The notes below the pieces were generated by a model. It ran no database searches and was not told the origin of the DNA. It worked only from the letters and a program-made list of their open reading frames with translations. Shown piece by piece: positions 8,214 to 35,629 of a stretch of 64,000 nucleotides of DNA. The stretch is taken from NCBI GenBank assembly GCA_015222205.1, contig JADFUW010000011.1, positions 511 through 64,510 of the forward strand, in the 5' to 3' direction. Each line of letters starts with the position of its first letter. The stretch's first letter is position 1. The position numbers and the translations under genes are program-made. The stretch is from Chloroflexota bacterium (GTDB lineage: Bacteria > Chloroflexota > Dehalococcoidia > Dehalococcoidales > UBA5760).

Positions 8214-8226
8214 AAGTGAGCAATGT

Positions 8227-8868: not shown

Positions 8869-8891
8869 TAAACTCGGGGTAAGGGTAAGTA

Positions 8892-11195: not shown

Positions 11196-11197
11196 AT

Positions 11198-12519: not shown

Positions 12520-13513
12520 AATACTGCTCACCCACGGCAGTGGCGGCAAGCTAGCCCACGAACTGGTAGAGAAAAGCTTTGTTAAAGCTTTAGCCAATCC
12601 TCTACTTGCCAAACTGGATGATTCAGCCGTTTTTGACCTAAGTGGTAAGCTAGCCTTCACCACTGACAGTCATGTAGTAAGCCCTATCTTCTACCCCGGT
12701 GGCGATATTGGAAAGCTGGCTGTCTGCGGCACAGTAAATGATTTAGCTATGTCGGGGGCTAAACCCCTCTACTTAAGCCTTGCCTTCATCATTGAGGAAG
12801 GACTCCTCCAGGACGAACTGGATAAAATCGTGAATTCCATTCAGAAGGCAACCAAAGAAGCCGAGGTGGAAATCGTTACCGGAGATACCAAAGTTGTTAA
12901 TCGAGGTAGTGCCGATAAGCTCTTTATCAACACGGCTGGTGTCGGCATAATACCACAAGGGGTCAATATCTCCGGAAGCAATGCCAGACCGGGAGATAAG
13001 GTAATTCTAAGCGGGACTATTGGTGAACACGGCATTGCAGTACTCAGCCAGCGGCAGGGGTTAAGCTTCTCCACCCAGCTTGAGAGCGATTTGGCCCCGC
13101 TGGGAAGCTTAGTAGCAGATATGCTGGCTGTTAGCCACAATATTCATTGTCTAAGAGACCCCACCCGAGGCGGGTTAGCCACTATCTTAAACGAACTAGC
13201 GGAGCAGTCAAAGGTAAGCATAAGGATTAATGAGGAAAAAATACCAGTACGCGAAGAGGTTTTAGCTGCCTGTGAGATGCTGGGCCTTGACCCTCTGTAT
13301 ATCGCCAACGAAGGTAAGTTAGTCGCTATAGTGCCCGCTCTAGATGCCACCAAGGTTCTCAAGGCAATGCGAGGCAACCATTACGGGAAAAGTGCCGCTG
13401 TCATCGGCGAAGTCAGGGCAGAAAACCCCGGCCGGGTGATAATGAAAACCAGTCTGGGAACCTCCCGAATAATTGACATGCTGGTCGGCGACCCGCTGCC
13501 AAGAATTTGTTGA
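12497..13513 (+). CDS. hypE: Carbamoyl dehydratase HypE
   Basis: I chose the ATG at 12497 (MEVVLENRILLTHGSGGK...). The C-terminus is PRIC. The track's upstream extension from 12305 lies entirely inside hypD. Confidence 0.9.
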   Translation: MEVVLENRILLTHGSGGKLAHELVEKSFVKALANPLLAKLDDSAVFDLSGKLAFTTDSHVVSPIFYPGGDIGKLAVCGTVNDLAMSGAKPLYLSLAFIIEEGLLQDELDKIVNSIQKATKEAEVEIVTGDTKVVNRGSADKLFINTAGVGIIPQGVNISGSNARPGDKVILSGTIGEHGIAVLSQRQGLSFSTQLESDLAPLGSLVADMLAVSHNIHCLRDPTRGGLATILNELAEQSKVSIRINEEKIPVREEVLAACEMLGLDPLYIANEGKLVAIVPALDATKVLKAMRGNHYGKSAAVIGEVRAENPGRVIMKTSLGTSRIIDMLVGDPLPRIC

Positions 13514-15547: not shown

Positions 15548-16999
15548 TCAGCTGCTTTTCTTACTCATGTGCCAGCGCAGGTCAGGCTGTCTAACAGCTC
15601 TGACATCGTCTAGACGCCTAACAGGTGTGTTGTGAGGAGCGGTGTGCAGGATCTCAGGGTTTTCCGTTGCCTCTCTGGCGATTTCTTTCATAGCATTAAC
15701 ATAGGCATCCAGTGTCCCTTTGCTCTCCGTTTCCGTAGGTTCAGTCATGAGGGCTTCGCTAACTATCAGAGGGAAATAAACGGTTGGGGGATGAAGACCA
15801 TAATCAAGCAAGCGTTTGGCGATGTCTAGTGTAGAAACACCCTTTGCCTTTTGTCGTTTCCCTGAAAATACTACTTCGTGCATACAAGTACGGTCATAGG
15901 GCAGGTAATAATATGCCTTTAGCTTCTCTTTAAGGTAGTTAGCATTTAGAACGGCGTTCTCACTGGCCTCCTTTAGTCCCTCCGCACCTAGGGAGCGTAT
16001 ATAGGCATAGGCCTTAACCATTACGCCAAAGTTTCCGTAAAAGTTCCCTACCCTTCCAATAGACTTAGCCGGTGAGATAAACATATGCTTTTTATTATCT
16101 TTAGTCACCAAGGGCGATGGCAGGAAATCAGTCAAATTTTTCTTAGCACAGACAGGACCTGAGCCAGGCCCGCCACCTCCATGGGGGGTGCTGAAGGTTT
16201 TATGGAGATTTAACTGGACGTAGTCATACCCCAACTCTCCAATCTTTACCCGTCCCAAGAAAGCATTCAGGTTGGCCCCGTCCCCCCCCAGGAGACCACC
16301 CCGGTCATGAACCAATTGACTAATCTCAATTATTTGAGGGTCAAATAAGCCTAGAGTAGTGGGCATGGTCAGTATTAATGCGGCCACCTCCTCATTCATC
16401 ATAGATTCAAGGCTCTTTAAATCTAGGTTACCTTCATTATCAGAAGGCACGGTGTCTACCTTAAACCCACACATGACAGCACTGGCCGGGTTTGTTCCAT
16501 GAGAGGAGTCTGTTAATAATATCTTCTTTCGAGCTTTATCCCCTCGGTCTTGATGGTATGCCTTTACCATTAGCAGGCCAGTTAGCTCACCATGTGCCCC
16601 TGCCATAGGGACTAAGCTAGTGCCACTCATGCCTGTAATCTCGGCTAGATACTCCTGCAACTCGCACATAAGTTGCAGTGCTCCCTGGGCAGACTCTTCT
16701 GACTGGTAGGGGTGAATTGAGGTAAAACCAGACAGGCTGGCAATATCCTCATGACACTTGGGGTTATATTTCATGGTGCAGCTGCCGAGAGGGTAGAACC
16801 CTGTGTCCACCCCGTAGTTGAATTTACTGAGGGCAGTGAAGTACCTTACGAGCTCAGTCTCACTTACCTCAGGCAACTCGAGCTCCCGGCGGAGTAGCCC
16901 CTTAGGAGGCAACTCAGCCGGGGGTACGTCTAAATGTGGGAGACTGCACCCAATCTTACCGGGCCGGCTAATATCGGGAAGTAGGTAATTGCGACTCAT
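15548..16999 (-). CDS. gcvPB: Glycine dehydrogenase (decarboxylating) subunit 2
   Basis: 483 aa. PLP-Lys context NLHKTFSTPHGGGGPG is typical of GcvPB. Confidence 0.95.
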   Translation of the reverse strand: MSRNYLLPDISRPGKIGCSLPHLDVPPAELPPKGLLRRELELPEVSETELVRYFTALSKFNYGVDTGFYPLGSCTMKYNPKCHEDIASLSGFTSIHPYQSEESAQGALQLMCELQEYLAEITGMSGTSLVPMAGAHGELTGLLMVKAYHQDRGDKARKKILLTDSSHGTNPASAVMCGFKVDTVPSDNEGNLDLKSLESMMNEEVAALILTMPTTLGLFDPQIIEISQLVHDRGGLLGGDGANLNAFLGRVKIGELGYDYVQLNLHKTFSTPHGGGGPGSGPVCAKKNLTDFLPSPLVTKDNKKHMFISPAKSIGRVGNFYGNFGVMVKAYAYIRSLGAEGLKEASENAVLNANYLKEKLKAYYYLPYDRTCMHEVVFSGKRQKAKGVSTLDIAKRLLDYGLHPPTVYFPLIVSEALMTEPTETESKGTLDAYVNAMKEIAREATENPEILHTAPHNTPVRRLDDVRAVRQPDLRWHMSKKSS

Positions 17000-17011: not shown

Positions 17012-18313
17012 CTATAGTGTGCCTAGAATTTCTACTAACCTGTCTATCTGTTGTTTTGTGTTTACCTCGGTGACACAGAATAACATACTGTTATCTATCA
17101 GATGGCTTATGTCTAAACCACCGACTATGCTCTCATGGAAAAGTGCTTTGTTAATCTGATGAGGTGCTATTGGACAACGAATGACAAACTCCTTAAAGAA
17201 GGGCTGCTGAAAAGCCAAGGAATATCCTTTAAGTTTGCTTATTTCTTCAGCAGCATAGTGAGCCTTGTGGTAGCACAATTCAGCGACCTGCCTAAGTCCT
17301 CTCTTACCCAAGGTGCCTAGGTAAACTGCCACTGCCAGGGCCATCAAGGCTTCACTGGTGCAGATATTAGATGTTGCCCGCTCTCTTCGGATATATTGCT
17401 CACGGGTCACTATAGTCATCACATATCCTGGCTTACCATTAACATCTACCGTCTTACCTACAAGCCTGCCTGGCATCTGGCGTACATATTCCTGCCGGCA
17501 GGTAAAGATACCTAAGTAGGGGCCACCAAAACTTGTCGGGATACCCAATGGCTGCCCCTCAGCGACGGCAATATCAGCCCCGTAATCCCCCGGCGGTTTA
17601 AACATACCTAAAGAAATAGGGTCAACTATAACAATGAGTAAGGCTCCAGCATCGTGGGCTTTTTGAACATATGGTTCTATCCCTTCAAAATGGCCAAAGA
17701 AATTGGGCTGTTGAACTATCAAACAGGCACAGTCTGAAGACAAATTTGAGTTCGACTCTATCGTTTCTAGGGTGAGATTCCTATTTCTAACATAAGTATC
17801 TATCACCTCGCGATATGTTGGATTTACCGTATTTAGTACAGCCGCCTTGCCCCGTTTGGTTATTATACATGCCATTATGGCTGCCTCAGCAGTGGCAGTA
17901 CTACCATCGTACATCCCAGCGTTGCTCACCTCCATACCGGTGAGTTGGCAGACTAGCGACTGGTACTCATAGGTAGCCTGCAGTGTACCCTGGCTAGCCT
18001 CTGCTTGATACGGGGTATAAGCAGTATAGAATTCGCTGCGACCGGTGATATGACCAACTACACTGGGAATAAAGTGCCTGTAGCAGCCAGCACCTAGAAA
18101 ACAAGCATAATTATCAAGATTAGCATTAAGGTTGGCTAGCCGGGAGAGCTCCTCTTTAAGCTCAAATTCAGATAGGGGTGTCGGTAGTTTAAGGCGGGCA
18201 TGACGGAATCTTTCCGGTATATCATGGAATAGTTCTTCAACAGAGCTGACGCCAATCTCTTGCAACATAGCGTTGCGTTCAGCATCAGTATTTGGTAAGT
18301 AGGGTGATGGCAT
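17012..18313 (-). CDS. gcvPA: Glycine dehydrogenase (decarboxylating) subunit 1
   Basis: 433 aa. FLGAGCYRHFIPSVV and TAYTPYQAEASQGTLQ motifs. Confidence 0.95.
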   Translation of the reverse strand: MPSPYLPNTDAERNAMLQEIGVSSVEELFHDIPERFRHARLKLPTPLSEFELKEELSRLANLNANLDNYACFLGAGCYRHFIPSVVGHITGRSEFYTAYTPYQAEASQGTLQATYEYQSLVCQLTGMEVSNAGMYDGSTATAEAAIMACIITKRGKAAVLNTVNPTYREVIDTYVRNRNLTLETIESNSNLSSDCACLIVQQPNFFGHFEGIEPYVQKAHDAGALLIVIVDPISLGMFKPPGDYGADIAVAEGQPLGIPTSFGGPYLGIFTCRQEYVRQMPGRLVGKTVDVNGKPGYVMTIVTREQYIRRERATSNICTSEALMALAVAVYLGTLGKRGLRQVAELCYHKAHYAAEEISKLKGYSLAFQQPFFKEFVIRCPIAPHQINKALFHESIVGGLDISHLIDNSMLFCVTEVNTKQQIDRLVEILGTL

Positions 18314-18911: not shown

Positions 18912-19099
18912 GTTCTTTTACCTGAGAGATTTCCCACCACCAACTAGCAGAATTACCCCTTCGGTGCCCCCATCTAGGGGTCTCTCCAAGAGTTTTACAT
19001 ACGGTAGTCCTTTTGCCTGAGAGTTTCAAGACCCAGCATCAAAGGCTATGTCTTTTTCCCCTTCGGCTCCCTCTATATAATACAGGGCCTCTCCTACCG
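18907..19099 (-). promoter_or_regulatory. Tandem glycine riboswitch (two aptamers)
   Basis: Minus-strand aptamer 1: CGGTAGGAGAG...GGGAGCCGAAGGGGAAAA...CTCTCAGGCAAAAGGACTACCG. Aptamer 2: CTTGGAGAGACCCC...GGCACCGAAGGGGTAAT...TCTCTCAGGTAAAAGAACAAG. It lies directly 5' of gcvH. Confidence 0.9.
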
Positions 19100-19106
19100 T
19101 TGTTTG

Positions 19107-26085: not shown

Positions 26086-26161
26086 TGGAGCGGGAGACGG
26101 GACTCGAACCCGCGACAACCTGCTTGGAAGGCAGGAACTCTACCAACTGAGTTACTCCCGC
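26086..26161 (-). tRNA. tRNA-Gly (anticodon TCC), CCA encoded
   Basis: Minus strand GCGGGAGTAACTCAGTTGGTAGAGTTCCTGCCTTCCAAGCAGGTTGTCGCGGGTTCGAGTCCCGTCTCCCGCTCCA folds as a cloverleaf. A TTGACA-18 nt-TACAAT promoter lies at 26203-26174. Confidence 0.9.
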
Positions 26162-26452
26162 AAGACCGTGCCTATTGTAGCCTCAAAAAACATCTGTTGT
26201 CAAAAGAGACGCCTGCTTTATCAAAAACTGAATCACCACAGATAAAAACCTCCCCACTATTATAACCCGCAGTCATCGCCAGGCATGCTTCTTAGTGAGG
26301 AGGTTACCAGTAGGTCTTTAAGACCAGCTAATATAACATTCGATGTGGAATTTCATTGAGTATAACTTAGCTAGGAGGAGTGAGGTGGAACTAAACACTC
26401 CTTTCGGCCTAATTGCCACTAAAAAAGAAGAGGGTTCGAGAACTGTCCAAGC

Positions 26453-26526
26453 TGGCTGCCGAGCCTGGATTCGAACCAGGGCTAGAGGATCCAAAGTCCT
26501 CCGTGCTACCACTACACAACTCGGCA
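26453..26526 (-). tRNA. tRNA-Gln (anticodon TTG), CCA encoded
   Basis: Minus strand TGCCGAGTTGTGTAGTGGTAGCACGGAGGACTTTGGATCCTC...CTCGGCAGCCA. The U1:A72 pair is typical of tRNA-Gln. Confidence 0.9.
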
Positions 26527-26562
26527 TCTTATATGACTAATTATAGCCCCCGCCAAGTCACA

Positions 26563-26651
26563 TGGTGCCGAAGGTCGGACTCGAACCGACACGGAGATTG
26601 CTCTCCAACAGTTTTTGAGACTGCCGCGTCTACCTCTTCCGCCACTTCGGC
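26563..26651 (-). tRNA. tRNA-Leu (anticodon CAA), long variable arm, CCA encoded
   Basis: Minus strand GCCGAAGTGGCGGAAGAGGTAGACGCGGCAGTCTCAAAAACTGT...GTCGGTTCGAGTCCGACCTTCGGCACCA. Confidence 0.9.
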
Positions 26652-26654
26652 ATA

Positions 26655-26726
26655 AGCGTAAGACGAGATTCGAACTTGCGACCTCTTCCTTGGCAGGAAA
26701 GCATTCTCCTGCTGAACTACCTCCGC
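26655..26726 (-). tRNA. tRNA-Gly (anticodon GCC), no encoded CCA, with helix mismatches (possibly degenerate)
   Basis: Minus strand GCGGAGGTAGTTCAGCAGGAGAATGCTTTCCTGCCAAGGAAGAGGTCGCAAGTTCGAATCTCGTCTTACGCT. It has G4-A69 and A51-C63 mismatches and sits 3 nt from tRNA-Leu(CAA). Confidence 0.6.
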
Positions 26727-26807
26727 ATCTTTAAACCACGCCTGAGCCTCCCTCTATCCCCCTGTGCTCTCGCTCTCAGACGCAGTTATCATCTTAGGAA
26801 ATTTCTT

Positions 26808-26894
26808 TGGTGCCGGGGGGGAGATTTGAACTCCCACGAGCCTAAGCTCACTAGCCCCTCAAGCTAGCGCGTCTGCCAATTCCGCCACCTCGGC
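26808..26894 (-). tRNA. tRNA-Leu (anticodon GAG), CCA encoded
   Basis: Minus strand GCCGAGGTGGCGGAATTGGCAGACGCGCTAGCTTGAGGGGCTAG...GGGAGTTCAAATCTCCCCCCCGGCACCA. One A5-C68 mismatch. Confidence 0.85.
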
Positions 26895-26901
26895 TCAATT
26901 C

Positions 26902-26978
26902 TGGCAGGAGTGGGAGGACTCGAACCCCCGACCGGCGGTTTTGGAGACCGCTGCTCTTCCAAACTGAGCTACACTCCT
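26902..26978 (-). tRNA. tRNA-Trp (anticodon CCA), CCA encoded
   Basis: Minus strand AGGAGTGTAGCTCAGTTTGGAAGAGCAGCGGTCTCCAAAACCGCCGGTCGGGGGTTCGAGTCCTCCCACTCCTGCCA. Confidence 0.9.
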
Positions 26979-27047: not shown

Positions 27048-28253
27048 TTAATCTAGCGGGCGCTCTTTAAGTGGTTTAATATCTATCTCTGAGTCAACAC
27101 TAGGTAGAGGGGCTACTGGCTCCGTCAGCATGAATTCCCCACCCAGTATCCACTCCTTTAGGGTAGTGGCAATTTCCACAGCTCGTGAGTAGCTAGACAG
27201 GGAAGCTGTCGGCACCTCCCTACCCTGAACTACTATTTTCCCGCTCTTTAGCTCGCCATAGCTGACCTCGCCTAGCACTTCTGGCTTCAGTGAGGGGTAT
27301 GCCTCGGAATAATCCACCACAGGAGCAAAAATCTCATTATCACCTACTGCAGTATAGCATAAGATTTCCTCAGAGAGCACCGGGATGGGTATGCCAATAC
27401 CCACTGTTAGGGTGCAACCATACCCCAGCATGCTGGTTCCCACCAGCCATCGTGGCGTCATCTGCTTCAAATTGCCGATTACGGCAATGCTACCTGCCCC
27501 CTCCCTCGGCACCCCGTTATCAGAGCGGCGCACATTGGGATTATGCTGGGTACCAGGCCAAGCAATAAAACCGATACCACCACCCAAGAATATCTTGGTG
27601 CCGATGCCAATAGTCTTATAATACGGGTCGTTGAGCAATGGTGAGAGCTGTCCGGCACTGCAAAAGTTAGCATTACCCAAATCAGGTCTCAATATCCCCA
27701 TATAGGTATAAATCGTCCTATCCGACAGGTTCACGGCTACATTATAGTTCTGATAAGCATTCCTGATATTGAACAGCACGGCATCATTAAGGTCATTAAT
27801 ATTTATCCAGGTCTCAAGCTTTTTCCTGGGGTAGCAATCCGTGCCGTAAGCAGTAGCCACCAGCCTAATATCCTTACCGGCAACGAGCTCCTCAATGACA
27901 TGCCCGCCACCGTAGTTGAACTCACCAGGATAGATTTTATTTCTGGGGTCATCATCAGGAAGAGCGTTAGACCCGATAAATAAGTCCACGGCAGCAAACC
28001 CGGCATAAGCCGGAACATCATTGAGATAGGCTCTACCACCCCCCAGCTTCATCTTTGGCTTAGTGTGCCCAATATTAAAATAGGCACCCGAGGAGCACAT
28101 AGGACTAAAGGTGCCGGTAGTAACTACATCTATCTCCTGTGCCGTCTTTTTAGCCCCCTGCTGCTTAACAATATCTATTATCTCTTCAGCAGTAACGACT
28201 ACCGCCCTGCCCTCTTTTATCTTCTCGTTTATTTCCGCTATTGTCTTTGCCAT
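27048..28253 (-). CDS. COG1900/DUF39 homocysteine biosynthesis protein (L-aspartate-semialdehyde sulfurtransferase family)
   Basis: 401 aa. DVVTTGTFSPMCSSGAYFN, YGGGHVIEELV, NAYQNYNVAVN and NDPYYKTIGIGTKIFLGGGIGF blocks are characteristic of the methanogen-type family. No CBS or ferredoxin domain is fused. Confidence 0.75.
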   Translation of the reverse strand: MAKTIAEINEKIKEGRAVVVTAEEIIDIVKQQGAKKTAQEIDVVTTGTFSPMCSSGAYFNIGHTKPKMKLGGGRAYLNDVPAYAGFAAVDLFIGSNALPDDDPRNKIYPGEFNYGGGHVIEELVAGKDIRLVATAYGTDCYPRKKLETWININDLNDAVLFNIRNAYQNYNVAVNLSDRTIYTYMGILRPDLGNANFCSAGQLSPLLNDPYYKTIGIGTKIFLGGGIGFIAWPGTQHNPNVRRSDNGVPREGAGSIAVIGNLKQMTPRWLVGTSMLGYGCTLTVGIGIPIPVLSEEILCYTAVGDNEIFAPVVDYSEAYPSLKPEVLGEVSYGELKSGKIVVQGREVPTASLSSYSRAVEIATTLKEWILGGEFMLTEPVAPLPSVDSEIDIKPLKERPLD

Positions 28254-28261
28254 ACCTAAAG

Positions 28262-28290
28262 ATAATAATGTTAACGACGAGACTTGTCAA
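28262..28290 (-). promoter_or_regulatory. Putative promoter placing the COG1900 mRNA start at or next to its ATG (leaderless-like)
   Basis: Minus strand TTGACA (28290-28285), 17 nt, TATTAT (28267-28262), then only 8 nt (CTTTAGGT) before the ATG at 28253. No Shine-Dalgarno sequence. Confidence 0.35.
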
Positions 28291-28448
28291 TCCAGATTAT
28301 CTCAGTAAACCCAAAAACCGAAAAACATAAGACGCCATACTAGGACCATTCAAATAATATGCTCCCCCTGCGGAGTAACAGAGCTTAAGTTAGGCTAACA
28401 AACGCATGCCATTGACCCTAACTTAAAAATTTGAATGAGTACAGGGTA

Positions 28449-28477
28449 TTGACAAGGCTTATTTTATCTGTTAAAAT
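28449..28477 (+). promoter_or_regulatory. Putative sigma70-type promoter of the surface-protein/ECF operon
   Basis: TTGACA (28449-28454), 17 nt, TAAAAT (28472-28477). About 130-nt leader ending in AAGGAGG before the ATG at 28610. Confidence 0.5.
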
Positions 28478-28609
28478 CAGGTAAGCTAGACTATAATAAA
28501 GTGCACTGAATTATCTGTCAAGATAACCTCATAAGAAATATAGGAGGTAATACAGGACCTGAGCTAATTAAAAAGATAGCAAGTCGATTAAGGAGGTAAC
28601 ATCAGAGCA

Positions 28610-30568
28610 ATGAAGGCAAGATTTAATACTATTGCTGTTAGTCTAGTGGCTGCTTGTGCCCTATTACTGGCGCCAGTGCTTAGCACACCAGTACTGGCAG
28701 ATTCCTATCCCTTCCAGACAACTGACCCTGAGGTGATTGACGCCTTGGATTATCTCTACAGTGAGCAGGATACTGACGGTGCTATCGGTGGTTTTGGTGC
28801 TTCAGCCTGGGTGGTAATAGCCATTGCTGCAGCTGGTGAAGACCCCCATGACTGGAAGGTAGACGATAACCCGTCTATTATCGATTACTTAGCAACTAAT
28901 GCTAGCGATGCTGACTCAGCAACGGATTATGCTCGGATGCTGTTAGCGATTGTAGCTGCTAGCGAAGACCCGAATGACTTTGGCGGCCGGGATTTTGTTT
29001 CCCTTCTGGAGTCAACCTATGACGGCTCGCAGATTGGTGATGACACCCTTCTGAACGATGATTTCTGGGGAGTTATGGGGCTAATCGCCAGCGGTGAGAG
29101 CCCAAGCTCGGATATTATTAGCAACTGTGTAGCCTTTATCCTGAGTAACCAGAACGGCGATGGTGGCTGGAGTTGGGGTGTAGGCGCCGGCAGCGATGTT
29201 GATGATACGGCTGCTGCCGTAATGGCTCTAATCGCCGCTGGCGAGCCTCCGAGTTCTACGGCGGTAACTGACGCCCTGGCTTATATTAAGTCAACCCAGA
29301 TGGCAAGCGGTGGTTTTGAGTCCTGGGGGTCAACCAATGCTGATACCGATTCCTGGGGTATTGATGCTATAGTTGCTGCCGAACAAGACCCCACTGACAC
29401 CGCCTGGGCATCTGGAAGCGGCAATGACTCGATTGATGACCTGCTGACCTTCCGACAGCCGGACGGCTCGTTTTACTGGCAGATTGATAACCCGGGGATG
29501 AGCATACACAAGACAACGGCCTGTGCTATAACCGCTTTATTGGGCAAACCCTTTCCCATAGCAGTCCTGACCCCAGAGGGGGTGACTATTGGTGTCAGGG
29601 TTGAAGGGCAGGGTGAAACTGTCTGGGACGGGAGCGTCACCGTTACCGAGTCTCAGATTACAGCGACCAATAGTGGCACAACCTATCACCTTGAAGACCC
29701 CACCGCCCTTGGGGCTCTAGATGAAGCCTCCCAGGCTGGAGACTTCTCTTACGAAACGACCGACGAATACGGTTCTTTATATGTAACCTCAATAAACGGT
29801 GAGGAACCTGAGGGAATGAGTGGCTGGCTGTACCGGGTAGATTACTTGAGTCCTATGGTAGGTGCGGCTGACTTTATCCTAGATGAGACGACACCTCCCG
29901 ACCCACCACACCATGAAGTCCTCTTTTACTATGGCGAGTGGGGCGAGCCACCACTTAAAATAGAGGTGGATAAAACCGAGGTGGATGTGGACGAGTCATT
30001 CACTGCTACGGTAACCTACTACGATGATGCTACCCAGGCATGGTCTCCCCTTGATAAGGCGACAGTCCATGCTGACCAGAACTATACTACCGGGGCCAAT
30101 GGAACAGTAGATATCACCGTAGATACAGATATGACTCTCAATATCTACGCCGAGAAGGATGGCTTCATTCGCAGCAATAGGATTACCGTCACGGTAGGCA
30201 CCGGCACTGGTGGCGCTAGTGAAGTGGGCCTTACGGCTGATATCATGCCAGCGATAAGCTTCACCGTTGACCCCAGCAGCATAGACTTCGGCGAGCTAGG
30301 TCCCCGGGACACCAGCGACCTGCACACGATAAGCATAACCAATACCGGTACTTGGGCACTGCTAATCTCCTGTACCGTGAGTGACGATGCTAACGACCTT
30401 TACGCCGATGGCCTTAAGCTGGACGAGGAAATGTGGGACTTGTTTAACGCCAGTATTGCCAGGGATAACTCCCAAGATACCGATGTCACGCTAACCGTTC
30501 CGGAAAACTATTCTGGGGTGGGTGAACAGGGCGGGGCAATAATCTTCTGGGCATCGGAGGCACCCTAA
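28610..30568 (+). CDS. Secreted multidomain protein: alpha/alpha-toroid (prenyltransferase-like) repeats + DUF4430-like domain + two Ig-like domains
   Basis: Signal peptide ...PVLSTPVLA/DS. Six roughly 45-aa repeats (e.g. NQNGDGGWSW...DDTAAAVMALIAAGEPPSS). DUF4430-like YVTSINGEEPEGMSGWLYRVDY...AADFIL. C-terminal beta-rich modules. Confidence 0.8.
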   Translation: MKARFNTIAVSLVAACALLLAPVLSTPVLADSYPFQTTDPEVIDALDYLYSEQDTDGAIGGFGASAWVVIAIAAAGEDPHDWKVDDNPSIIDYLATNASDADSATDYARMLLAIVAASEDPNDFGGRDFVSLLESTYDGSQIGDDTLLNDDFWGVMGLIASGESPSSDIISNCVAFILSNQNGDGGWSWGVGAGSDVDDTAAAVMALIAAGEPPSSTAVTDALAYIKSTQMASGGFESWGSTNADTDSWGIDAIVAAEQDPTDTAWASGSGNDSIDDLLTFRQPDGSFYWQIDNPGMSIHKTTACAITALLGKPFPIAVLTPEGVTIGVRVEGQGETVWDGSVTVTESQITATNSGTTYHLEDPTALGALDEASQAGDFSYETTDEYGSLYVTSINGEEPEGMSGWLYRVDYLSPMVGAADFILDETTPPDPPHHEVLFYYGEWGEPPLKIEVDKTEVDVDESFTATVTYYDDATQAWSPLDKATVHADQNYTTGANGTVDITVDTDMTLNIYAEKDGFIRSNRITVTVGTGTGGASEVGLTADIMPAISFTVDPSSIDFGELGPRDTSDLHTISITNTGTWALLISCTVSDDANDLYADGLKLDEEMWDLFNASIARDNSQDTDVTLTVPENYSGVGEQGGAIIFWASEAP

Positions 30569-30594
30569 CACCAATCTAAAAGAAATCCTTTATC

Positions 30595-30619
30595 GGGGAG
30601 GGGTATCCTACCCCTCCCC
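30595..30619 (+). terminator. Strong 11-bp hairpin between the surface-protein gene and the next gene (attenuator or partial terminator; no clean T-tract)
   Basis: GGGGAGGGGTA tcc TACCCCTCCCC, a perfect stem, 27 nt after the stop at 30568. Confidence 0.4.
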
Positions 30620-30648
30620 AAGCAAACCTGAAGCTAAGGGAGGCTGTT

Positions 30649-31185
30649 TTGTTAAACAAGGTAGCCAGCGTGTTTTTGTTACTTATAGCGTTCTCAGTAT
30701 TGTTTCCCAGCCAGGTGCTGGCACTGGGGGTAGGAGTAGCTCCACACAAGCTAGAATTAGAAGCCTACCCATTAGGTTCAACGACAAGCCAGATTAATGT
30801 CCTTAACACCTCAACTGAAGAGGGCCTATACCAGGTATACGCTGAGGGAGAAGGCAAGGACTGGTTCAGTATTACCCCCGAGGAATTTGTGCTCAAACCC
30901 GATAGTAGCCAGGTGGTAGAAGTAGCCATATCACCACCGCTGACTGCCCATGGTGATTATAATGCCTCTATCTGTGTTGTTTCTCTTGTGCCTGCCTCAG
31001 AACTCAAGGTCGGCTGTGGCGTAAAGGTGCCAGTGCACATCGTGATAGTACCACCGCCGCCAATAGGCAGGGTAGCCGAGATTATGCAAGGGGCATCATT
31101 ACTATGGATAATTATCGCCGTAGCCGCAGCCGTAGTTATCGGGGTTGTCATCTGGAGAAGACGAAGAAGGGCTTATGAGACATAG
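30649..31185 (+). CDS. Small surface protein: signal peptide, Ig-like domain, C-terminal TM anchor with RRRRR stop-transfer
   Basis: TTG start after GGGAGG. N-terminal hydrophobic segment ...SQVLA. C-terminal LLWIIIAVAAAVVIGVVIWRRRRR. Confidence 0.65.
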   Translation: MLNKVASVFLLLIAFSVLFPSQVLALGVGVAPHKLELEAYPLGSTTSQINVLNTSTEEGLYQVYAEGEGKDWFSITPEEFVLKPDSSQVVEVAISPPLTAHGDYNASICVVSLVPASELKVGCGVKVPVHIVIVPPPPIGRVAEIMQGASLLWIIIAVAAAVVIGVVIWRRRRRAYET

Positions 31186-32158
31186 AAAGCTAGCCAGTCT
31201 TATTGGAATAGGGGTCCTGACAGCTTTACTATGCAGTTGTACAGCCAGTACATCATTACTGACAAACGAGGGTAGTCTACCCCCTGCTGACCATAGCTCA
31301 TCGGCTAAGGTAGTGGTAACCAGTGACTTCGGCAAAGAGATATTTATCGAGGAAACAATAGTTATTAGCGAGAATACTACCGCCTTAGACGCTTTACAGC
31401 AGGTCGCTGGGGTTGAAACCAAGTATGGGGGAGGTTTTGTTAGCGCCATCAACAGCATTGGCTCTGAATATGAGGGGGCTAACCAGCAGAAAAAGGACTG
31501 GTTTTTCTATATCAATGGTATGTCAACCAACATCGGTGCCGGCCAGTATATTCTTCAGGATGGCGACATTGAGCACTGGGACTTCAGGGGGTGGGGCTTC
31601 CGCCAGTTTGTGCCGGCGATAATCGGCGACTTCCCAGAGCCATTTCTCCACGGCTATGGGGGGGTGGTCTATCCCACCATAATTATCCATCAAGACGGCT
31701 GGGAAGAAGATGCCCAGCGCATAGCTGATAAATTAAGCCAGCTTGGCGTAGAGAGCATCTATACCAGGGGTATCAACGAGCTATCAACGGATGAGAAGAG
31801 CTCCTGTAACCTCATCCTGTTAGGTGAAAGTAACTTCCAGCCTATAGAGGAGATAAACCAGCCCTGGAACCGACTCGGTTTTTACTGCTACTTTGAGGAT
31901 AGTTGTCTTCAGGTCTTTGACTCGGTGGGAGAATCAGCCGCTGAGTATGAAGGCAAGGCAGGTGTTATCCAGGCAACCCAGAGCCCCTGGAACCCAAAGG
32001 GCATCGGGGTGTGCGAAAATGTGGTCTGGATGGTGTCTGGTTTAGATAAGGCCGGGATAAAAGCTGCCGTGAATACTCTGGTTAATCACGATAACGATTT
32101 TCAATATACCGGTGCCATAGTAATAGCCAGCGGAGATACAGTCAGGGTGCCCCAGTGA
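31175..32158 (+). CDS. Membrane-anchored or lipoprotein-like DUF4430-domain protein
   Basis: I chose the start MRHRKLASLIGIGVLTALLCSC. The DUF4430-like core is TALDALQQVAG...GGGFVSAINSIG...KKDWFFYINGMSTNIGAGQYILQDGDIEHWDF. The roughly 190-aa C-terminal domain is unrecognised. Confidence 0.7.
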   Translation: MRHRKLASLIGIGVLTALLCSCTASTSLLTNEGSLPPADHSSSAKVVVTSDFGKEIFIEETIVISENTTALDALQQVAGVETKYGGGFVSAINSIGSEYEGANQQKKDWFFYINGMSTNIGAGQYILQDGDIEHWDFRGWGFRQFVPAIIGDFPEPFLHGYGGVVYPTIIIHQDGWEEDAQRIADKLSQLGVESIYTRGINELSTDEKSSCNLILLGESNFQPIEEINQPWNRLGFYCYFEDSCLQVFDSVGESAAEYEGKAGVIQATQSPWNPKGIGVCENVVWMVSGLDKAGIKAAVNTLVNHDNDFQYTGAIVIASGDTVRVPQ

Positions 32159-33081
32159 TAAGCCTTAGATACCGGAATAAAGGAACTCCTGTCCACAAGC
32201 TCAACCCCTTCTGCAAACTGGCCTGGGCTGGTAGCATACTGGTTCTAGCCCTAATCCTTGATAATCCGCTTTTTCTCCTCGTATTATTTCTATCAACGCT
32301 GCCGGTAATAAAAGCGGCTAGGGTATGGAAGGAGTGGCTCTCTACCATGAAATTCACCCTCTTTCTGTGCCTGGCAATTATACTGATAAACGCTCTGGTA
32401 AGCTCTCACGGCAGCCACGTTCTACTGGAAGCCCCTTTTCGCATCCCGATAATGGGCGCCCCGGTAATAACCCTGGAGGCTATAGTTTATGGAGTAGCCA
32501 TGTCACTGAGGTTACTGGCAATAATCTCCGCCTTTGCCATACTCACCTTCACAGTTCATCCTGATGACATGATGCTGGCCATGATAAGGATGAAGCTACC
32601 CTATAAATCGGTGCTGGTAACCTCACTCTCCACCAGGTTTATTCCCACCCTGTTTGATGATATAGAGCGTATTACCGATGTCCAGAGGTCAAGGGGAGTG
32701 GAGCTTGACAAGGGAAGACTAACCCACAGAATCAGGGGCCGCTCGTCCATTGTGACTGCCCTCTTATCTAATTCCCTAGACAGGGCGGTTCAGGTTGCCG
32801 AGGCAATGGAATCAAGGGCATTTGGTACCGGCAGGAATCGAACCTTCTACAAGGACATAAGGTTCAGCCTGATTGATGTGACCACACTGGTGTTTGCCCT
32901 CCTCCCCTGTGCCCTGGGTATCTTTATGGCGGTCTCCAAGTATGGACAGTATCAATACTACCCCACTTTAGGTGGGATTGGTCTTAGCGGTATAGAGTGG
33001 TTCTTATTGGCACTAATGGTGTCTATCTTATCTGTCATATTACTACTAGCCCATGTAAAGCAGAGGGTTGACCTTGATTAG
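32155..33081 (+). CDS. ecfT: ECF transporter transmembrane (T) component, CbiQ/EcfT family
   Basis: Polytopic membrane protein with the coupling-helix region STRFIPTLFDDIERITDVQRSRG, typical of EcfT. Confidence 0.8.
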   Translation: MISLRYRNKGTPVHKLNPFCKLAWAGSILVLALILDNPLFLLVLFLSTLPVIKAARVWKEWLSTMKFTLFLCLAIILINALVSSHGSHVLLEAPFRIPIMGAPVITLEAIVYGVAMSLRLLAIISAFAILTFTVHPDDMMLAMIRMKLPYKSVLVTSLSTRFIPTLFDDIERITDVQRSRGVELDKGRLTHRIRGRSSIVTALLSNSLDRAVQVAEAMESRAFGTGRNRTFYKDIRFSLIDVTTLVFALLPCALGIFMAVSKYGQYQYYPTLGGIGLSGIEWFLLALMVSILSVILLLAHVKQRVDLD

Positions 33082-34747
33082 GATAGAAGGCTTAACGTTT
33101 TACTACAGTGGTGCTACGCAGCCGTCCCTACAGGATATAAACCTAGAAGTTAACGGCGGGGAGTTTGTCCTGGTGACCGGCCCCTCTGGCGGTGGTAAGT
33201 CAAGCCTGTGCCGCTGTCTTAATGGCCTCATACCCCATTTCTACGGGGGAAAGATAGCCGGCCGGGTAGAGGTAGGAGGGCTGGATACACTCAAGCACTC
33301 AACCAGGGAACTCGCTACCAGGGTGGGTATGGTATTCCAGGACCCCGAAAACCAGCTGGTTAGCCTGGATGTAGAGCGGGAGATTGCTTTCGGCCTGGAG
33401 AATCTTGCCTTCCCCAAGGAGCTTATCGCCAAGCGGATTGAGGAATCACTGGATACACTTGGTATCTCTGATCTCCGTTATCGGCATCTCCACGAGCTTT
33501 CCGGTGGGGAGAAGCAAAAGGTTGCTATCGCCTCAGTCCTGGCACTTCATCCCAGTATTCTGATACTGGATGAGCCAACCTCAGAGCTTGACCCCAAGGG
33601 CGCTGAGGAGGTGCTTTCCGTAGTAACACGGCTGAATGATGAGCTGGGTCTTACTGTGATATTAGTAGAGCACCGGCTGGACAGGGTGCTCCAGTATGCT
33701 GACCGCCTAATAGCCTTCAACCAGGGAAGGATTACCGTTGATGGTAAGGTCAGGGATATCATGGGTAGTTGCTACCAAGAGCTTTTACAGATGGGGGTTG
33801 GCGTGCCCCCGATGATTCGGCTGGTTCAGGGACTAAGAGACAGGGGTATCAGCATAGACGGGACACCGCTTACGGTTAAAGAGGGGCGAGCTATGCTCGA
33901 TAAGGCCCTCCACGGAGTTTCAGGACAGTTCACTCGCTCCAGTGAGGGTAATAACAGCAAGCCGCTGGTGGAAACAACAAGGCTCTGGTATGCCTATCCC
34001 GATGGACTCACCGCCCTGAAGGATATCAGTCTCAGCATAGGTGCCGGAGAATTTGTAGCTATTATCGGGAGGAACGCCTCAGGGAAAACGACACTGGTCA
34101 AGCACTTTAACCACCTCCTGACGCCCACTAAGGGGAGGGTCAAGATAGATGGCATTGATACCCGGGGAGCCACTATCGCCGAACTGGCTAAGAAGGTTGG
34201 CTTTGTCTTTCAGAACCCGAATGACCATCTTTTCGCTGATACTGTTAACGACGAAATTACCTTTACCCTGAAGAACCTGGGGTTTGATAGCAGCGAGATA
34301 GAATCACGCACCAGCGAGGTGCTGGCGAAGTTTAATCTTATAGAGTATAGAAATCATTATCCCCGCTCACTGAGCGGTGGGGAAAAGCAACGGGTTGCCC
34401 TCGCCTCAGTCCTTGCCTTAAATCCCAAGATTCTGATTCTGGATGAGCCGACCCGGGGAATGGAATACCGGCTTAAGAGTGAGCTGATGTGCTTCCTGGA
34501 AGAATACCGGCAGCAGGGCAACACCGTGATTCTGGTGAGCCATGACGTAGAGATGGTGGCTGAGTATGCTGACCGGGTGATACTGCTGAGTGAGGGAAAA
34601 ATTGTGGTTGATGGGGAAAAACATGATGTGTTGTCTCAGGCACTCCTGTTCTCCCCGCAGATAAACCGCCTGGCTCAAGCCTTTACCGGATACGGCGTCC
34701 CCAATAATATATTGACGGTTGATGAAGTGCTGGGTATGTTATCATGA
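33068..34747 (+). CDS. ecfA: Fused duplicated ECF ATPase (EcfA-EcfA')
   Basis: Two complete ABC cassettes: GPSGGGKSS / LSGGEKQKVAIA / ILILDEP, and GRNASGKTT / LSGGEKQRVALA / ILILDEP. Confidence 0.9.
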   Translation: MTLIRIEGLTFYYSGATQPSLQDINLEVNGGEFVLVTGPSGGGKSSLCRCLNGLIPHFYGGKIAGRVEVGGLDTLKHSTRELATRVGMVFQDPENQLVSLDVEREIAFGLENLAFPKELIAKRIEESLDTLGISDLRYRHLHELSGGEKQKVAIASVLALHPSILILDEPTSELDPKGAEEVLSVVTRLNDELGLTVILVEHRLDRVLQYADRLIAFNQGRITVDGKVRDIMGSCYQELLQMGVGVPPMIRLVQGLRDRGISIDGTPLTVKEGRAMLDKALHGVSGQFTRSSEGNNSKPLVETTRLWYAYPDGLTALKDISLSIGAGEFVAIIGRNASGKTTLVKHFNHLLTPTKGRVKIDGIDTRGATIAELAKKVGFVFQNPNDHLFADTVNDEITFTLKNLGFDSSEIESRTSEVLAKFNLIEYRNHYPRSLSGGEKQRVALASVLALNPKILILDEPTRGMEYRLKSELMCFLEEYRQQGNTVILVSHDVEMVAEYADRVILLSEGKIVVDGEKHDVLSQALLFSPQINRLAQAFTGYGVPNNILTVDEVLGMLS

Positions 34748-35484
34748 AACGGAGATACATCTTTCTTACCCTTATTTTGGCTCTGGGCATAGCTAGCTTT
34801 ATGGCATCGGTGTTTAGTCCATCCCCACTTGATATCCTGTCAAACTGGGGGTTGGTATCAACCATACTGGTCAGCTTAGCTATCACTGCCTTCTTCTTTG
34901 AGTTTGAAGAGGCAGCAGTAAGCTCCAAGGAAATAGCCCTGGTGGGAATGCTAGGAACCGTAGCCACCGTGATAAGAATTCCCTTTGCTGCCATACCCAG
35001 CGTGCAACCATGCACCGCCCTGATAATCTGCTCCGGATATGTCTTCGGACCGGTGGCTGGCTTCATGGTTGGTGCCATAACGGCTCTTGTCTCCAACTTT
35101 TTCCTCGGGCAGGGCCCCTGGACAATATATCAGATGTTTGCCTGGGGAATGGCTGGCATCAGTGCCGCTTATCTTAAGCGGTTCAATCTGAGTACAAGGG
35201 GGCTTATCGCTTTCGGCATTATCTGGGGCTATGCTTTTGGCGCCATAATGAATACATGGTTCTGGGCCTCTTTTATCTATCCACTGACACTAAAAACCTT
35301 TATCGTCGCCCAGCTCAATAGTGTGTGGTTTGATACTGCCCATGCCGTGGGCACTGCTGTCTTACTAGGGCTGTTTGGCAAGAAAACTATAGCTATTCTA
35401 GAGAGGTTCAAAGAAAAGTTCCAGTGGGGGACACTCAAGACTGATTTGCCACCCACCCTGCATGTTTTTGCCTCGGACACCTAG
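34744..35484 (+). CDS. Putative ECF substrate-capture (S) component, six-TM membrane protein
   Basis: 246 aa and highly hydrophobic. It is the last gene of the ECF module and its start overlaps the ecfA stop. The substrate family was not recognised. Confidence 0.6.
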   Translation: MKRRYIFLTLILALGIASFMASVFSPSPLDILSNWGLVSTILVSLAITAFFFEFEEAAVSSKEIALVGMLGTVATVIRIPFAAIPSVQPCTALIICSGYVFGPVAGFMVGAITALVSNFFLGQGPWTIYQMFAWGMAGISAAYLKRFNLSTRGLIAFGIIWGYAFGAIMNTWFWASFIYPLTLKTFIVAQLNSVWFDTAHAVGTAVLLGLFGKKTIAILERFKEKFQWGTLKTDLPPTLHVFASDT

Positions 35485-35553: not shown

Positions 35554-35629
35554 TGGCTCCCCGAGTAGGACTCGAACCTACAACCTAGCGGTTAACAGCC
35601 GCCCACTCTACCAATTGAGCTATCGGGGA
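35554..35629 (-). tRNA. tRNA-Asn (anticodon GTT), CCA encoded
   Basis: Minus strand TCCCCGATAGCTCAATTGGTAGAGTGGGCGGCTGTTAACCGCTAGGTTGTAGGTTCGAGTCCTACTCGGGGAGCCA. Confidence 0.9.

Follow-up and report, generated by a model that had tools for sequence, protein, structure and literature searches.

A conserved operon of uncultured Dehalococcoidia combines transcobalamin-like surface proteins with a CbrT-like ECF transporter and probably serves corrinoid uptake

We describe a six-gene, translationally coupled operon of an uncultured Dehalococcoidia bacterium (positions 28449–35484 of the window, i.e., the whole 64-kb stretch of DNA that was analysed), which in our judgement probably codes both for a dedicated (group-I-like) ECF importer that takes up corrinoids (cobamides and/or cobinamide) and for the surface capture proteins belonging to it. 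This assignment is supported by three independent lines of evidence: the homology of the S component to CbrT, the structural matches of the secreted protein P1 to transcobalamin and haptocorrin, and the cobalamin riboswitches present in homologous operons. The same three lines lend support to a first-pass annotation of this DNA, which had proposed a surface corrinoid-scavenging module handing its substrate to an ECF importer; those of its suggested checks that were carried out all favoured this reading.

Organisation and conservation of the operon

The seven features that the first-pass annotation placed behind one promoter, namely P1, a hairpin, P2, P3, EcfT, the fused EcfAA' and the S component, were all recovered at the coordinates given there, as was the promoter itself (Table 1). 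We regard the genes as a single operon because they overlap at the P2/P3, P3/EcfT, EcfT/EcfA and EcfA/S borders, the start of the S gene overlapping the ecfAA' stop by 4 nt.

Table 1. Features of the operon, with coordinates in the window and the basis of each assignment
Feature	Coordinates	Strand	Basis
Sigma-70-type promoter, TTGACA-17-TAAAAT, TG-extended -10	28449..28477	+	Consensus scan 11/12
Dyad-symmetric element, 38 bp, AATCAGG...CTGAATT, candidate operator	28475..28512	.	Starts within -10 box
P1, secreted, 652 aa, signal peptide aa 1-30	28610..30568	+	ORF; Pfam; AF2; Foldseek
P1 alpha/alpha toroid, 12 helices (six hairpins), aa 40-311	28727..29542	+	DSSP of model
P1 DUF4430/SLBB beta domain with one helix, aa 325-442	29582..29935	+	PF14478; model
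P1 two C-terminal Ig-like beta-sandwich modules, aa 448-529 and 551-650	29951..30559	+	Model secondary structure
Intercistronic GC-rich hairpin, 11-bp stem, 3-nt loop	30595..30619	+	GGGGAGGGGTA-TCC-TACCCCTCCCC
P2, 178-aa Ig-like (ASH/PapD-like), signal peptide and C-terminal TM anchor	30649..31185	+	Pfam; hydropathy
P3, 327-aa lipoprotein	31175..32158	+	Homologue start; lipobox
P3 DUF4430 domain	31301-31591	+	PF14478 2.9e-12, 47.3 bits vs cut-off 23.8; aa 78-147 of long ORF
P3 unnamed alpha/beta domain	31622-32155	+	AF2 model, Foldseek
EcfT, T component	32155..33081	+	PF02361 CbiQ 1.5e-28, 100.4 bits vs cut-off 25
EcfA-EcfA' ATPase, fused, 559 aa	33068..34747	+	Two ABC_tran domains
S component, CbrT homologue, two-TM N-terminal extension	34744..35484	+	PF12822 1e-12, 48.9 bits vs cut-off 30.7

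For a survey of gene neighbourhoods, 131 relatives were collected among species-representative genomes and 80 loci were kept, about three quarters of them from Chloroflexota/Dehalococcoidia as judged from record titles; metagenomic relatives amounted to hundreds of clusters. The operon is conserved across the Dehalococcoidia and near-universal among the loci recovered from this class, which is a new observation, the order P1-(P2)-P3-EcfT-EcfAA'-S being kept in essentially all Dehalococcoidia loci with sufficient upstream DNA. In Clostridia, the same survey showed the arrangement toroid-DUF4430-EcfT-EcfAA'::S. A functional link to the divergently transcribed homocysteine-biosynthesis gene HcyBio (27048-28253) was rejected, and we consider its adjacency incidental because it was a neighbour of the operon in none of the 80 related loci. 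The remaining content of the window comprises hydrogenase/hyp, glycine cleavage, PAS kinase, translation factor, MEP-pathway, oxoacid:ferredoxin oxidoreductase and V/A-ATPase genes, and a search across the 64 kb for corrinoid-dependent or corrinoid-salvage genes returned none.

P1, a secreted protein resembling transcobalamin

Homologues of P1 (n = 523) come mostly from Dehalococcoidia. Pfam searches assigned SQHop_cyclase_C (PF13243; 3.7e-8, above the gathering score) and DUF4430 (PF14478; aa 365-426, 3.3e-6, 27.9 bits vs. a cut-off of 23.8) to P1; PF01122, the family of transcobalamin, intrinsic factor and haptocorrin, gave no match at E<=0.1, which rules out direct membership of P1 in that family by sequence. 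The AF2 model (pLDDT 88.2) contains six helical hairpins, a beta domain and two sandwiches, in agreement with the toroid, DUF4430 domain and two Ig-like modules of the first-pass annotation. The Ig-like modules gave a weak Pfam match to BatD and Foldseek matches to CEP192 SPD-2/ASH-type domains.

When the model was compared to the PDB by Foldseek, ranks 1–13 were occupied by transcobalamin (human, rat and bovine) and haptocorrin with E values of 1.4e-12 to 5e-11, followed by the first terpene cyclase at rank 14. The alignments extend over 444–477 columns with targets of about 400 residues and span both domains, so the single chain of P1 does unite an alpha6/alpha6 barrel with a beta domain C-terminal to it, the two-domain carrier architecture that had been proposed for it. 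The global rmsd of this two-domain match is about 24 A at a pTM of 0.58, values at which the model does not fix the position of the domains relative to each other and hence the cleft between them. By sequence, the toroid is nearest to squalene-hopene cyclase and drimenyl-diphosphate synthase, nearer than to transcobalamin, with its profile retrieving SHC/terpene cyclases at 1e-16; it also shares 27% identity with the toroid-SLH proteins encoded in riboswitch-controlled Oscillospiraceae operons. The P1 profile matched the transcobalamin beta domain marginally, with E values from 0.18 (5no0_A) to 1.9. Judging from the model, P1 appears to be a structural homologue of the PF01122 carriers that lies outside their family by sequence and may share their way of working.

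P2 and P3, the anchored partner proteins

P2 showed weak Pfam matches to Ig-like, ASH and PapD-like domains and ends with a TM segment (aa 150-168) followed by RRRRR. Homologues at the same position were found by tblastn in 14 loci, an Ig-like gene occupies the P2 position in L081 and L083, and one homologue (P0139) is a fusion of a P2-like protein with P3. Derivation of P2 as a copy of the P1 Ig modules was rejected, as no significant similarity was detected between them.

Because the homologues of P3 comprise about 327 aa, its true start is most likely M11 (31175). A lipobox with Cys22 is invariant among these homologues, and P3 is therefore assigned as a lipoprotein and not as a signal-anchored protein. 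The DUF4430 domain of the membrane-tethered protein in the first-pass annotation was retained. DUF4430 matches above the gathering score thus occur in two secreted or surface proteins of the operon, P1 with its signal peptide and P3 with its lipobox. Neither the single P3 sequence nor its profile matched any PDB entry by sequence; in Foldseek searches with the AF2 model (pLDDT 81), the N-terminal domain resembled intrinsic factor, haptocorrin and the DUF4430 structure 3u7z, and the C-terminal domain resembled the flavodoxin-like domain of BcsB. The family of this C-terminal domain comprises just 192 clusters, and in seven of the ten distant members checked the domain comes after DUF4430. This unnamed alpha/beta domain and its coupling to DUF4430 are new observations.

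The ECF transporter

The T component and the fused ATPase had been recognised in the first-pass annotation, and both proved correct with PF02361, TIGR04520 (aa 4-272; 487.9 bits, cut-off 315) and TIGR04521 (aa 314-554; 465.6 bits, cut-off 330) all matching above their cut-offs; EcfT also matched TIGR02454 below its cut-off. With a CbiQ/EcfT-family T component, EcfA and EcfA' domains and an S component in the same operon, the system has the composition of a dedicated (group I) ECF transporter.

CbrT is the only significant solved relative of the S component. The single sequence matched CbrT (6fnp_A) with E=1.5e-10 and 31% identity over 168 aa, and the family profile matched it with E=4.1e-24 over residues 8-180 of 182, followed by RibU at 0.029 and FolT at 0.4, which places the protein with CbrT and not with a family of unrelated substrate. 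Of the six-TM S-like protein described before, the six-helix core was verified, but the count was incomplete: hydropathy indicates two additional hydrophobic segments in an N-terminal extension of about 60 aa beyond the CbrT-like core.

Promoter, riboswitches and transcript features

The ATG of P1 is located 132 nt downstream of the promoter, whose pattern TTGACA-17/18-TATAAT is invariant across 15 aligned Dehalococcoidia loci. The cobalamin riboswitch RF00174 was detected neither in the whole window at the Rfam gathering score nor in the leader region (28200-28700) at E<=10, as had been stated before for the leader of about 130 nt, and it was absent from 54 of the 58 scanned loci. Riboswitches control homologous operons of one Dehalococcoidia lineage and two Oscillospiraceae. 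In the Dehalococcoidia loci L069 (54.5 bits) and L072 (52.1 bits), RF00174 lies directly 5' of the P1 homologue, and terminator hairpins precede the start codon; these operons are orthologous to the one described here, with the same gene order and S components of 53–54% identity. In the Oscillospiraceae loci L045 and L073, it precedes a toroid-SLH gene.

The regulation envisaged as non-canonical in the first-pass annotation fits with a conserved dyad overlapping the promoter. In an alignment of this element, Watson-Crick symmetry between the arms was present on average at 12.1 of 19 positions, compared to 3.6–6.7 with one arm slid, and the inner arms covary; the copy in the window is weaker (10/19). 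Across loci totalling about 1 Mb, occurrences of the motif are almost confined to the position just 5' of P1, and L047 contains a second copy 5' of a Peripla_BP_2 gene. Nineteen related loci carry a gene for a wHTH-DUF7839 regulator just 5' of the operon. The conserved dyad and, in relatives, the adjacent regulator gene seem to stand in for the riboswitch, which is new here, and a repressor bound to the 38-bp dyad, which covers the -10/+1 region, would probably control expression. The covarying inner arms had prompted a reading of the dyad as an RNA hairpin, which is disfavoured because its left arm lies within the -10 box and is untranscribed from that promoter; the inner stem alone may still form an RNA hairpin.

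The hairpin after P1 consists of 11 perfect pairs without a U tract, and the 82-nt intergenic RNA (30569-30650) has an MFE of -30.4 kcal/mol (z=-2.75). Hairpins of the type GGGGAGG...CCTCCCC follow the P1 stop codon in eight related loci, making the conservation of this element another new observation. It probably protects the transcript or terminates it in part, which would yield the capture protein in excess over the membrane parts.

Discussion

In the proposed uptake route, P1 would sandwich the corrinoid between its toroid and its SLBB/DUF4430 beta domain while being kept at the cell surface by its Ig-like modules and/or the anchored P2. The lipoprotein P3, with a second DUF4430 domain and the alpha/beta domain, may act as an intermediate close to the membrane. 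Binding of the corrinoid within the membrane would fall to the CbrT-like S component, which would translocate it by toppling against EcfT, powered by the fused EcfAA'. No bacterial toroid/DUF4430 protein is known from experiment to bind or transport corrinoids.

Because such systems were already predicted in 2007, we consider the operon an added, well-supported example and not a novel type. In the article by Burroughs, Balaji, Iyer and Aravind (Biol Direct 2:4, 2007; PMC1796856), secreted toroid-SLBB operons with CbiO/CbiQ-like genes were predicted to scavenge B12 or its precursors; they share with the operon the alpha/alpha toroid plus SLBB (= DUF4430) arrangement, additional domains of the Ig fold, a second SLBB paralogue and the CbiO-/CbiQ-like genes. 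That study predates the recognition of ECF transporters and CbrT, and the part of the text accessible to us does not mention Dehalococcoidia, the alpha/beta partner domain of P3, the hairpin or the regulation. ECF-CbrT of Lactobacillus delbrueckii (PDB 6FNP), an experimentally proven carrier of vitamin B12 (cobalamin) and cobinamide (Santos 2018; PMC5997447), has a homologous S component and the same type of EcfT and two-ATPase energising module. However, CbrT belongs to the group II S components and uses a shared general ECF module, whereas a dedicated module is encoded alongside here, with fused ATPases, an extended S component and transcobalamin-like surface proteins, which the characterised ECF-CbrT complex lacks. 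The one genetically studied homologous operon, lsa1836-1840 of Lactobacillus sakei, connected with heme content by Verplaetse et al. (bioRxiv 10.1101/864751, 2019), likewise combines S, fused EcfAA', EcfT, a secreted transcobalamin-beta-like protein and a transcobalamin-alpha-like protein. Its alpha and beta parts are separate polypeptides, while they are fused in P1 and a further beta domain is present in P3, and it lacks an Ig-like anchored protein as well as a DUF4430-plus-alpha/beta lipoprotein. Transcobalamin, intrinsic factor and haptocorrin share the order of alpha6/alpha6 barrel and beta domain and are the best matches of P1 and the P3 N-domain, but they lack the two Ig-like modules, show no significant sequence match to P1 and deliver to an endocytic receptor, whereas delivery here would go to a membrane S component. 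A functional analogy exists to BtuG and BtuH, the surface B12-binding lipoproteins of Bacteroides, and to BtuF of BtuFCD, which also capture corrinoids with high affinity outside the cytoplasm to feed a transporter, although their folds and transporters (TonB-dependent BtuB; type II ABC BtuCD) are unrelated. A literature search combining Dehalococcoidia, ECF, cobalamin and transporter found no paper.

Several points weigh against corrinoids as substrates: the heme-linked L. sakei operon, the riboswitch-free leaders of the window and of most scanned loci, a toroid nearer to terpene cyclases by sequence, the lack of a PF01122 match, the geometry of the P1 model, and the absence of corrinoid genes from the window. 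The main rival substrate is heme or another non-corrin tetrapyrrole, which transcobalamin-like proteins would scavenge for an ECF transporter as proposed for Lsa1836-1840. The phenotypes of mutants and over-expressing strains linked the L. sakei operon, which has equivalent parts, to heme uptake, and the Peripla_BP_2 family encoded behind the second dyad of L047 includes heme and siderophores among its ligands besides B12. Nevertheless, we consider heme an unlikely substrate here: homologous operons of three lineages are governed by cobalamin riboswitches, the S component belongs to a specifically CbrT-like family, and the heme assignment of the L. sakei transcobalamin-like proteins themselves was based on docking.

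We give a low probability to the import of some other soluble metabolite or cofactor, a ligand for which the SLBB/toroid scaffold would have been co-opted in this lineage. B12-making archaea also carry such SLBB proteins, which may scavenge "a distinct metabolite" according to Burroughs et al. (2007), and most Dehalococcoidia operons have the dyad and transcription factor instead of a riboswitch; yet the CbrT homology is strong and the orthologous operons of L069 and L072 are riboswitch-controlled. Largely refuted, and in our view very improbable, is the view that P1 works outside the cell on isoprenoids of the envelope, as a terpenoid-binding or class-II-cyclase-like enzyme, and is linked to the ECF genes only incidentally. 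Besides the top sequence matches of the toroid to squalene-hopene cyclase and drimenyl-diphosphate synthase, this view could draw on the similarity of DVDDTA (aa 196-201) to the class II motif DxDDTA. We rejected a cyclase reading of DVDDTA because it is not kept in relatives: the wider family retains only D-x-D-x-T (DPDVT in L045, DPDIT in L073), without conserving the DxDD acid. Moreover, the P1 model shows a single toroid and not the two-barrel architecture of cyclases, transcobalamin outranks all cyclases structurally, and the linkage to the ECF genes is strict.

Starting from corrinoid import as the preferred function, a further-reaching joint proposal is that the wHTH-DUF7839 protein replaced the riboswitch as sensor in most Dehalococcoidia and that the DUF4430/flavodoxin-like module of P3 is a new corrinoid-binding unit, which we regard as tentative and rather doubtful. 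In that case, wHTH-DUF7839 would bind the dyad in response to corrinoid and represent a new class of B12-responsive transcription factors, and the relay from a secreted transcobalamin-like protein via a lipoprotein to a CbrT-like S component would be without a characterised counterpart.

Dehalococcoidia are commonly described as depending on the corrinoids of others for organohalide respiration and C1 metabolism, and the known uptake route is BtuFCD in Dehalococcoides. If the operon does encode a corrinoid importer, a large part of this uncultured class would use an ECF-CbrT-type system with transcobalamin-like surface proteins, which would be relevant to models of how cobamides are shared in subsurface and marine sediments. 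P1-type proteins would provide expressible, soluble bacterial homologues of transcobalamin, which could decide the question of B12 vs. heme from the L. sakei work and make testable the proposal of 2007 that the B12 carriers of animals derive from bacterial ones. The occurrence of riboswitches in some of these operons and of the dyad and transcription factor in others offers a concrete handle on the protein-based sensing of the same signal.

Organization and conservation of the operon

In the window, which comes from an uncultured Chloroflexota/Dehalococcoidia genome, the region 28449-35484 contains six ORFs, all in the same direction, behind a near-consensus promoter. They code for a secreted toroid protein with a DUF4430 domain (P1), an anchored Ig-like protein (P2), a second DUF4430 protein (P3), EcfT, a fused EcfAA' ATPase and an S component. 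Because starts and stops overlap or abut (overlaps of 11 nt for P2/P3, 4 nt for P3/EcfT, 14 nt for EcfT/EcfAA' and 4 nt for EcfAA'/S), we regard the genes as a single translationally coupled operon. A convergent tRNA gene 73 nt past the S gene marks its end.

Family searches of all six products agreed with the assignments of the first-pass annotation: P1 matched SQHop_cyclase_C and DUF4430, each past the gathering score, P2 gave weak Ig-like/ASH-type matches, P3 matched DUF4430 (E=2.9e-12), EcfT matched CbiQ (1.5e-28), the fused ATPase passed the cut-offs of both ECF ATPase equivalogs, and the S component matched PF12822. NCBI lists MAG proteins identical to P1, under the name 'DUF4430 domain-containing protein', and to S, under the name 'ECF transporter S component [Chloroflexi bacterium]'. 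The gene content and layout described in that annotation therefore hold as a whole, and its functional interpretation, extracellular corrinoid capture coupled to a dedicated ECF importer, is supported.

A genome scan with one genome per species yielded 131 relatives, and 80 loci were kept, about three quarters of them labelled Chloroflexota/Dehalococcoidia, about one fifth Clostridia and a few from other phyla. The gene neighbourhood, whose survey had been suggested as a check of the proposal, proved to be conserved: tblastn with the window proteins recovered the order P1-(P2)-P3-EcfT-EcfAA'-S in essentially all Dehalococcoidia loci with enough upstream DNA. The Clostridia show the arrangement toroid - DUF4430 - EcfT - EcfAA' fused to S. 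The divergently oriented HcyBio gene of the window was linked to the operon in none of the related loci by tblastn.

Positions of the operon components, regulatory elements and neighbouring features
Feature	Locus	Position	Remarks
Operon promoter	window	28449-28477	TTGACA-17-TAAAAT
Dyad	window	28475-28512	10/19 symmetric
Opposing promoter	window	28493-28521 (- strand)	TTGACA-17-TATTAT, 11/12
AGGAGG/GGGGG block	window	28541-28549	~60-70 nt 5' of P1 start
P1	window	28610-30568	652 aa
DVDDTA motif	window	29195-29212	P1 aa 196-201
Hairpin	window	30595-30619	3' of P1; 11-bp stem
P2	window	30649-31185	178 aa
P3	window	31175-32158	most likely start M11
EcfT	window	32155-33081	
EcfAA'	window	33068-34747	fused
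S component	window	34744-35484	
Convergent tRNA	window	35557-35629 (- strand)	
NiFe hydrogenase region	window	1133-13513	
Glycine-cleavage P-protein genes	window	17012-18313, 15548-16999	
Glycine riboswitch	window	18995-19106 (- strand)	63.6 bits
Six-tRNA cluster	window	26089-26978 (- strand)	
V/A-type ATPase genes	window	56825-63926	
wHTH-DUF7839 gene	L081	8823-9629	winged helix aa 12-58, DUF7839 aa 156-256
wHTH-DUF7839 gene	L083	9087-9869	winged helix aa 12-58, DUF7839 aa 156-256
wHTH-DUF7839 gene	L004, L007, L010, L021, L025, L026, L027, L032, L044, L046, L052, L053, L062, L063, L076, L077, L079		
DUF4430-only protein	L081	12588-12992	134 aa
Second promoter and dyad	L047	10408-10483	TTGACA-17-TATAAT
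T-box	L015	8580-8844	
Moco riboswitch	L016	9812-9932	
TPP riboswitch	L050	12796-12894	

The secreted carrier protein P1

An AlphaFold2 model of P1, calculated with 37 homologues as input (mean pLDDT 88.2), shows 12 helices forming six helical hairpins at aa 40-311 and, at aa 325-442, a beta domain that includes a single helix, followed by two beta-sandwich modules. When this model was searched against the PDB with Foldseek, ranks 1-13 were taken by human, rat and bovine transcobalamin and human haptocorrin (E 1.4e-12 to 5e-11), and class II cyclases including squalene-hopene cyclase appeared only from rank 14 onward (5e-8). Because the alignments cover 444-477 columns of chains of about 400 residues, both domains align in order, as expected from the two-domain carrier architecture first read from the sequence. 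With a global rmsd of about 24 Å and a pTM of 0.58, the model does not fix how the two domains are oriented to each other. By sequence, the toroid is nearer to terpene cyclases (profile E=1e-16), the transcobalamin beta domain matches the P1 profile only marginally (E=0.18), and the family search gave no PF01122 match in P1. As judged from the predicted structure, P1 is thus a structural homologue of the eukaryotic cobalamin carriers without sequence-level membership of their family.

P1 carries a DVDDTA motif identical to the DxDDTA signature of class II terpene cyclases. The motif is kept across the Dehalococcoidia family, but the Clostridial toroid proteins retain just DxDxT, which speaks against P1 acting as a catalytic class-II-like cyclase; the residues may line the ligand cavity.

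The 963-993 aa P1 homologues of three loci (L069, L072 and L040) contain the toroid, but DUF4430 was not found in them, and the beta domain is provided by P3 only. In this they resemble the Lactobacillus sakei operon Lsa1836-1840, where alpha and beta proteins are likewise separate.

The P1 gene is followed by a hairpin whose GC-rich stem is perfectly paired and which lacks a U tract. Its position is kept in at least eight other loci, where GGGGAGG...CCTCCCC stems with differing middles follow the P1 stop codon. It probably terminates part of the transcripts or stabilises their 3' ends, which would raise the yield of P1 over that of the membrane components.

The lipoprotein P3 and its partner domain

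P3 had been described as a membrane-tethered DUF4430 protein. The DUF4430 assignment stands, and the start and tether were corrected: the homologues are about 327 aa long, which makes M11 the most likely start, and Cys22 within the lipobox L-[CAS]-[GSA]-C is kept in all of 37 sequences, which marks P3 as a lipoprotein. In a structure search with the model (pLDDT 81.3), its DUF4430 domain matched intrinsic factor, haptocorrin, transcobalamin and the DUF4430 crystal structure 3u7z. The alpha/beta domain of about 180 aa was best matched by flavodoxin-like domains in BcsB, a cellulose-synthase subunit (about 190 columns with an rmsd of 4-5 Å, at E about 1e-4). An exhaustive search found this C-terminal domain in only 192 clusters among 1.84 billion representatives. 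DUF4430 lies directly N-terminal to it in seven of ten distant members checked, some of them S-layer/CARDB surface proteins of about 900 aa, and was not detected in the other three. This distribution indicates that the alpha/beta domain is an unnamed partner domain dedicated to DUF4430. Two variants were seen: a metagenomic P3 homologue of 516 aa (P0139) has a P2-like Ig domain fused to P3, and in L081 the P3 slot is occupied by a protein without the alpha/beta domain.

The S component, cobalamin riboswitches and the likely cargo

The six-helix core proposed for the S component was recovered, but an N-terminal extension of about 60 aa adds two hydrophobic segments. Among all PDB sequences, its sole significant match was 6FNP chain A (E=1.5e-10), with the runner-up S component at E=0.85. 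This chain belongs to ECF-CbrT of L. delbrueckii, for which transport of cobalamin and cobinamide has been demonstrated (PMC5997447); CbrT had been predicted in 2009, and its validation followed in 2018. The two proteins are 31% identical over 168 residues and have the motifs IPxVQPxT, SNxxLGxGxWT, FDxxHA and RFxxxxxW in common. A profile of 19 family members from Dehalococcoidia and Clostridia, built without CbrT, matched CbrT at 4.1e-24 (residues 8-180 of 182) vs. 0.029 for RibU and 0.4 for FolT. Clustering with a family of unrelated substrate, which had been named as evidence against corrinoid import, was thus not observed; the opposite was seen.

Rfam scans of 58 loci detected the cobalamin riboswitch RF00174 in four. 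It lies directly 5' of the P1 homologue in the sister Dehalococcoidia genomes L069 and L072 (54.5 and 52.1 bits), with two terminator hairpins between riboswitch and start codon, and directly 5' of a toroid-SLH gene in the Oscillospiraceae loci L045 and L073, heading the whole operon in L045. From these elements, homologous operons are predicted to be B12-regulated in three independent lineages (L069/L072, L045 and L073). RF00174 was absent from the other 54 loci scanned and from the window, as already noted for the operon leader in the first-pass annotation. The T-box, Moco riboswitch and TPP riboswitch just 3' of the ECF operons of L015, L016 and L050, in that order, are those of adjacent genes and have no relation to the operon.

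Burroughs et al. 2007 (PMC1796856) describe bacterial secreted alpha/alpha toroids fused to a transcobalamin-like SLBB domain, often with Ig domains and a second SLBB paralogue in the operon, next to genes resembling CbiO and CbiQ. Such proteins are found in bacteria without B12 synthesis and were proposed to scavenge B12 or its precursors, and animal transcobalamin was proposed to have been acquired from such bacteria. Together with CbrT and the L. sakei operon reported in 2019 (S, fused AA', T, beta-like and alpha-like proteins; bioRxiv 10.1101/864751), this places the window system as a further case of a known, largely in-silico-defined type, so that the concept is not novel. The papers searched gave no mention of such a system in the phylum of the window. 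Three aspects deserve attention, namely that DUF4430 has a conserved partner domain, that riboswitch and dyad with transcription factor alternate, and that the system is widespread among Dehalococcoidia. We consider corrinoid capture and ECF import the likely function of the window operon. The main rival, a cargo of heme or another tetrapyrrole, can point to the L. sakei operon of like composition, for which heme was proposed; next to the CbrT match of the S component, we judge it rather improbable.

Promoter dyad and candidate regulator

Sequences 5' of P1 from the window and 15 other loci were aligned. Fifteen of the 16 have an invariant TTGACA-17/18-TATAAT promoter, and the -10 box of the window is TAAAAT. 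A 38-bp dyad with outer arms AATCAAG/CTTGATT begins within the -10 box, and its inner arms covary (e.g., TGGAT..ATCCA vs. CTTGT..ACAAG). Watson-Crick symmetry averages 12.1 of 19 positions vs. 3.6-6.7 with one arm slid, and in about 1 Mb of related-locus DNA the motif occurs almost exclusively at the P1 promoter. In 19 loci, a gene for a wHTH (MarR/ArsR-like) protein of about 260 aa with a DUF7839 domain lies immediately 5' of the P1 homologue and is codirectional with it. It was not found within the 64-kb window and is absent from the riboswitch-bearing loci, including L069/L072. The encoded protein may regulate the operon, and on the simplest reading of these sequences the dyad would be its operator, in place of a riboswitch.

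In L047, a second promoter with a dyad copy about 2 kb 3' of the ECF operon precedes genes for a Peripla_BP_2 protein (BtuF/FhuD/heme-binding family) and two surface proteins. This suggests a small regulon and fits tetrapyrrole/metal-chelate uptake, without discriminating between B12 and heme.

The window leader also contains a near-consensus promoter facing that of the operon, with its -10 box overlapping the dyad centre; a matching TTGACA was not seen in the aligned loci. The second Shine-Dalgarno-like block recurs in the aligned leaders of L004, L021, L046, L053, L054 and L077, in some loci followed by a mini-ORF of 3-5 codons, and could represent a leader peptide or a ribosome stand-by site.

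Other features of the window

The glycine riboswitch lies 5' of two glycine-cleavage P-protein genes, an ordinary arrangement, and the six-tRNA cluster is flanked by a response-regulator gene and HcyBio. The left part of the window codes for a NiFe hydrogenase with Mvh-delta/Hdr-like partners and hypF/hypD/hypE maturation genes, and the right part for V/A-type ATPase subunits, which fits anaerobic hydrogen-metabolising Dehalococcoidia.
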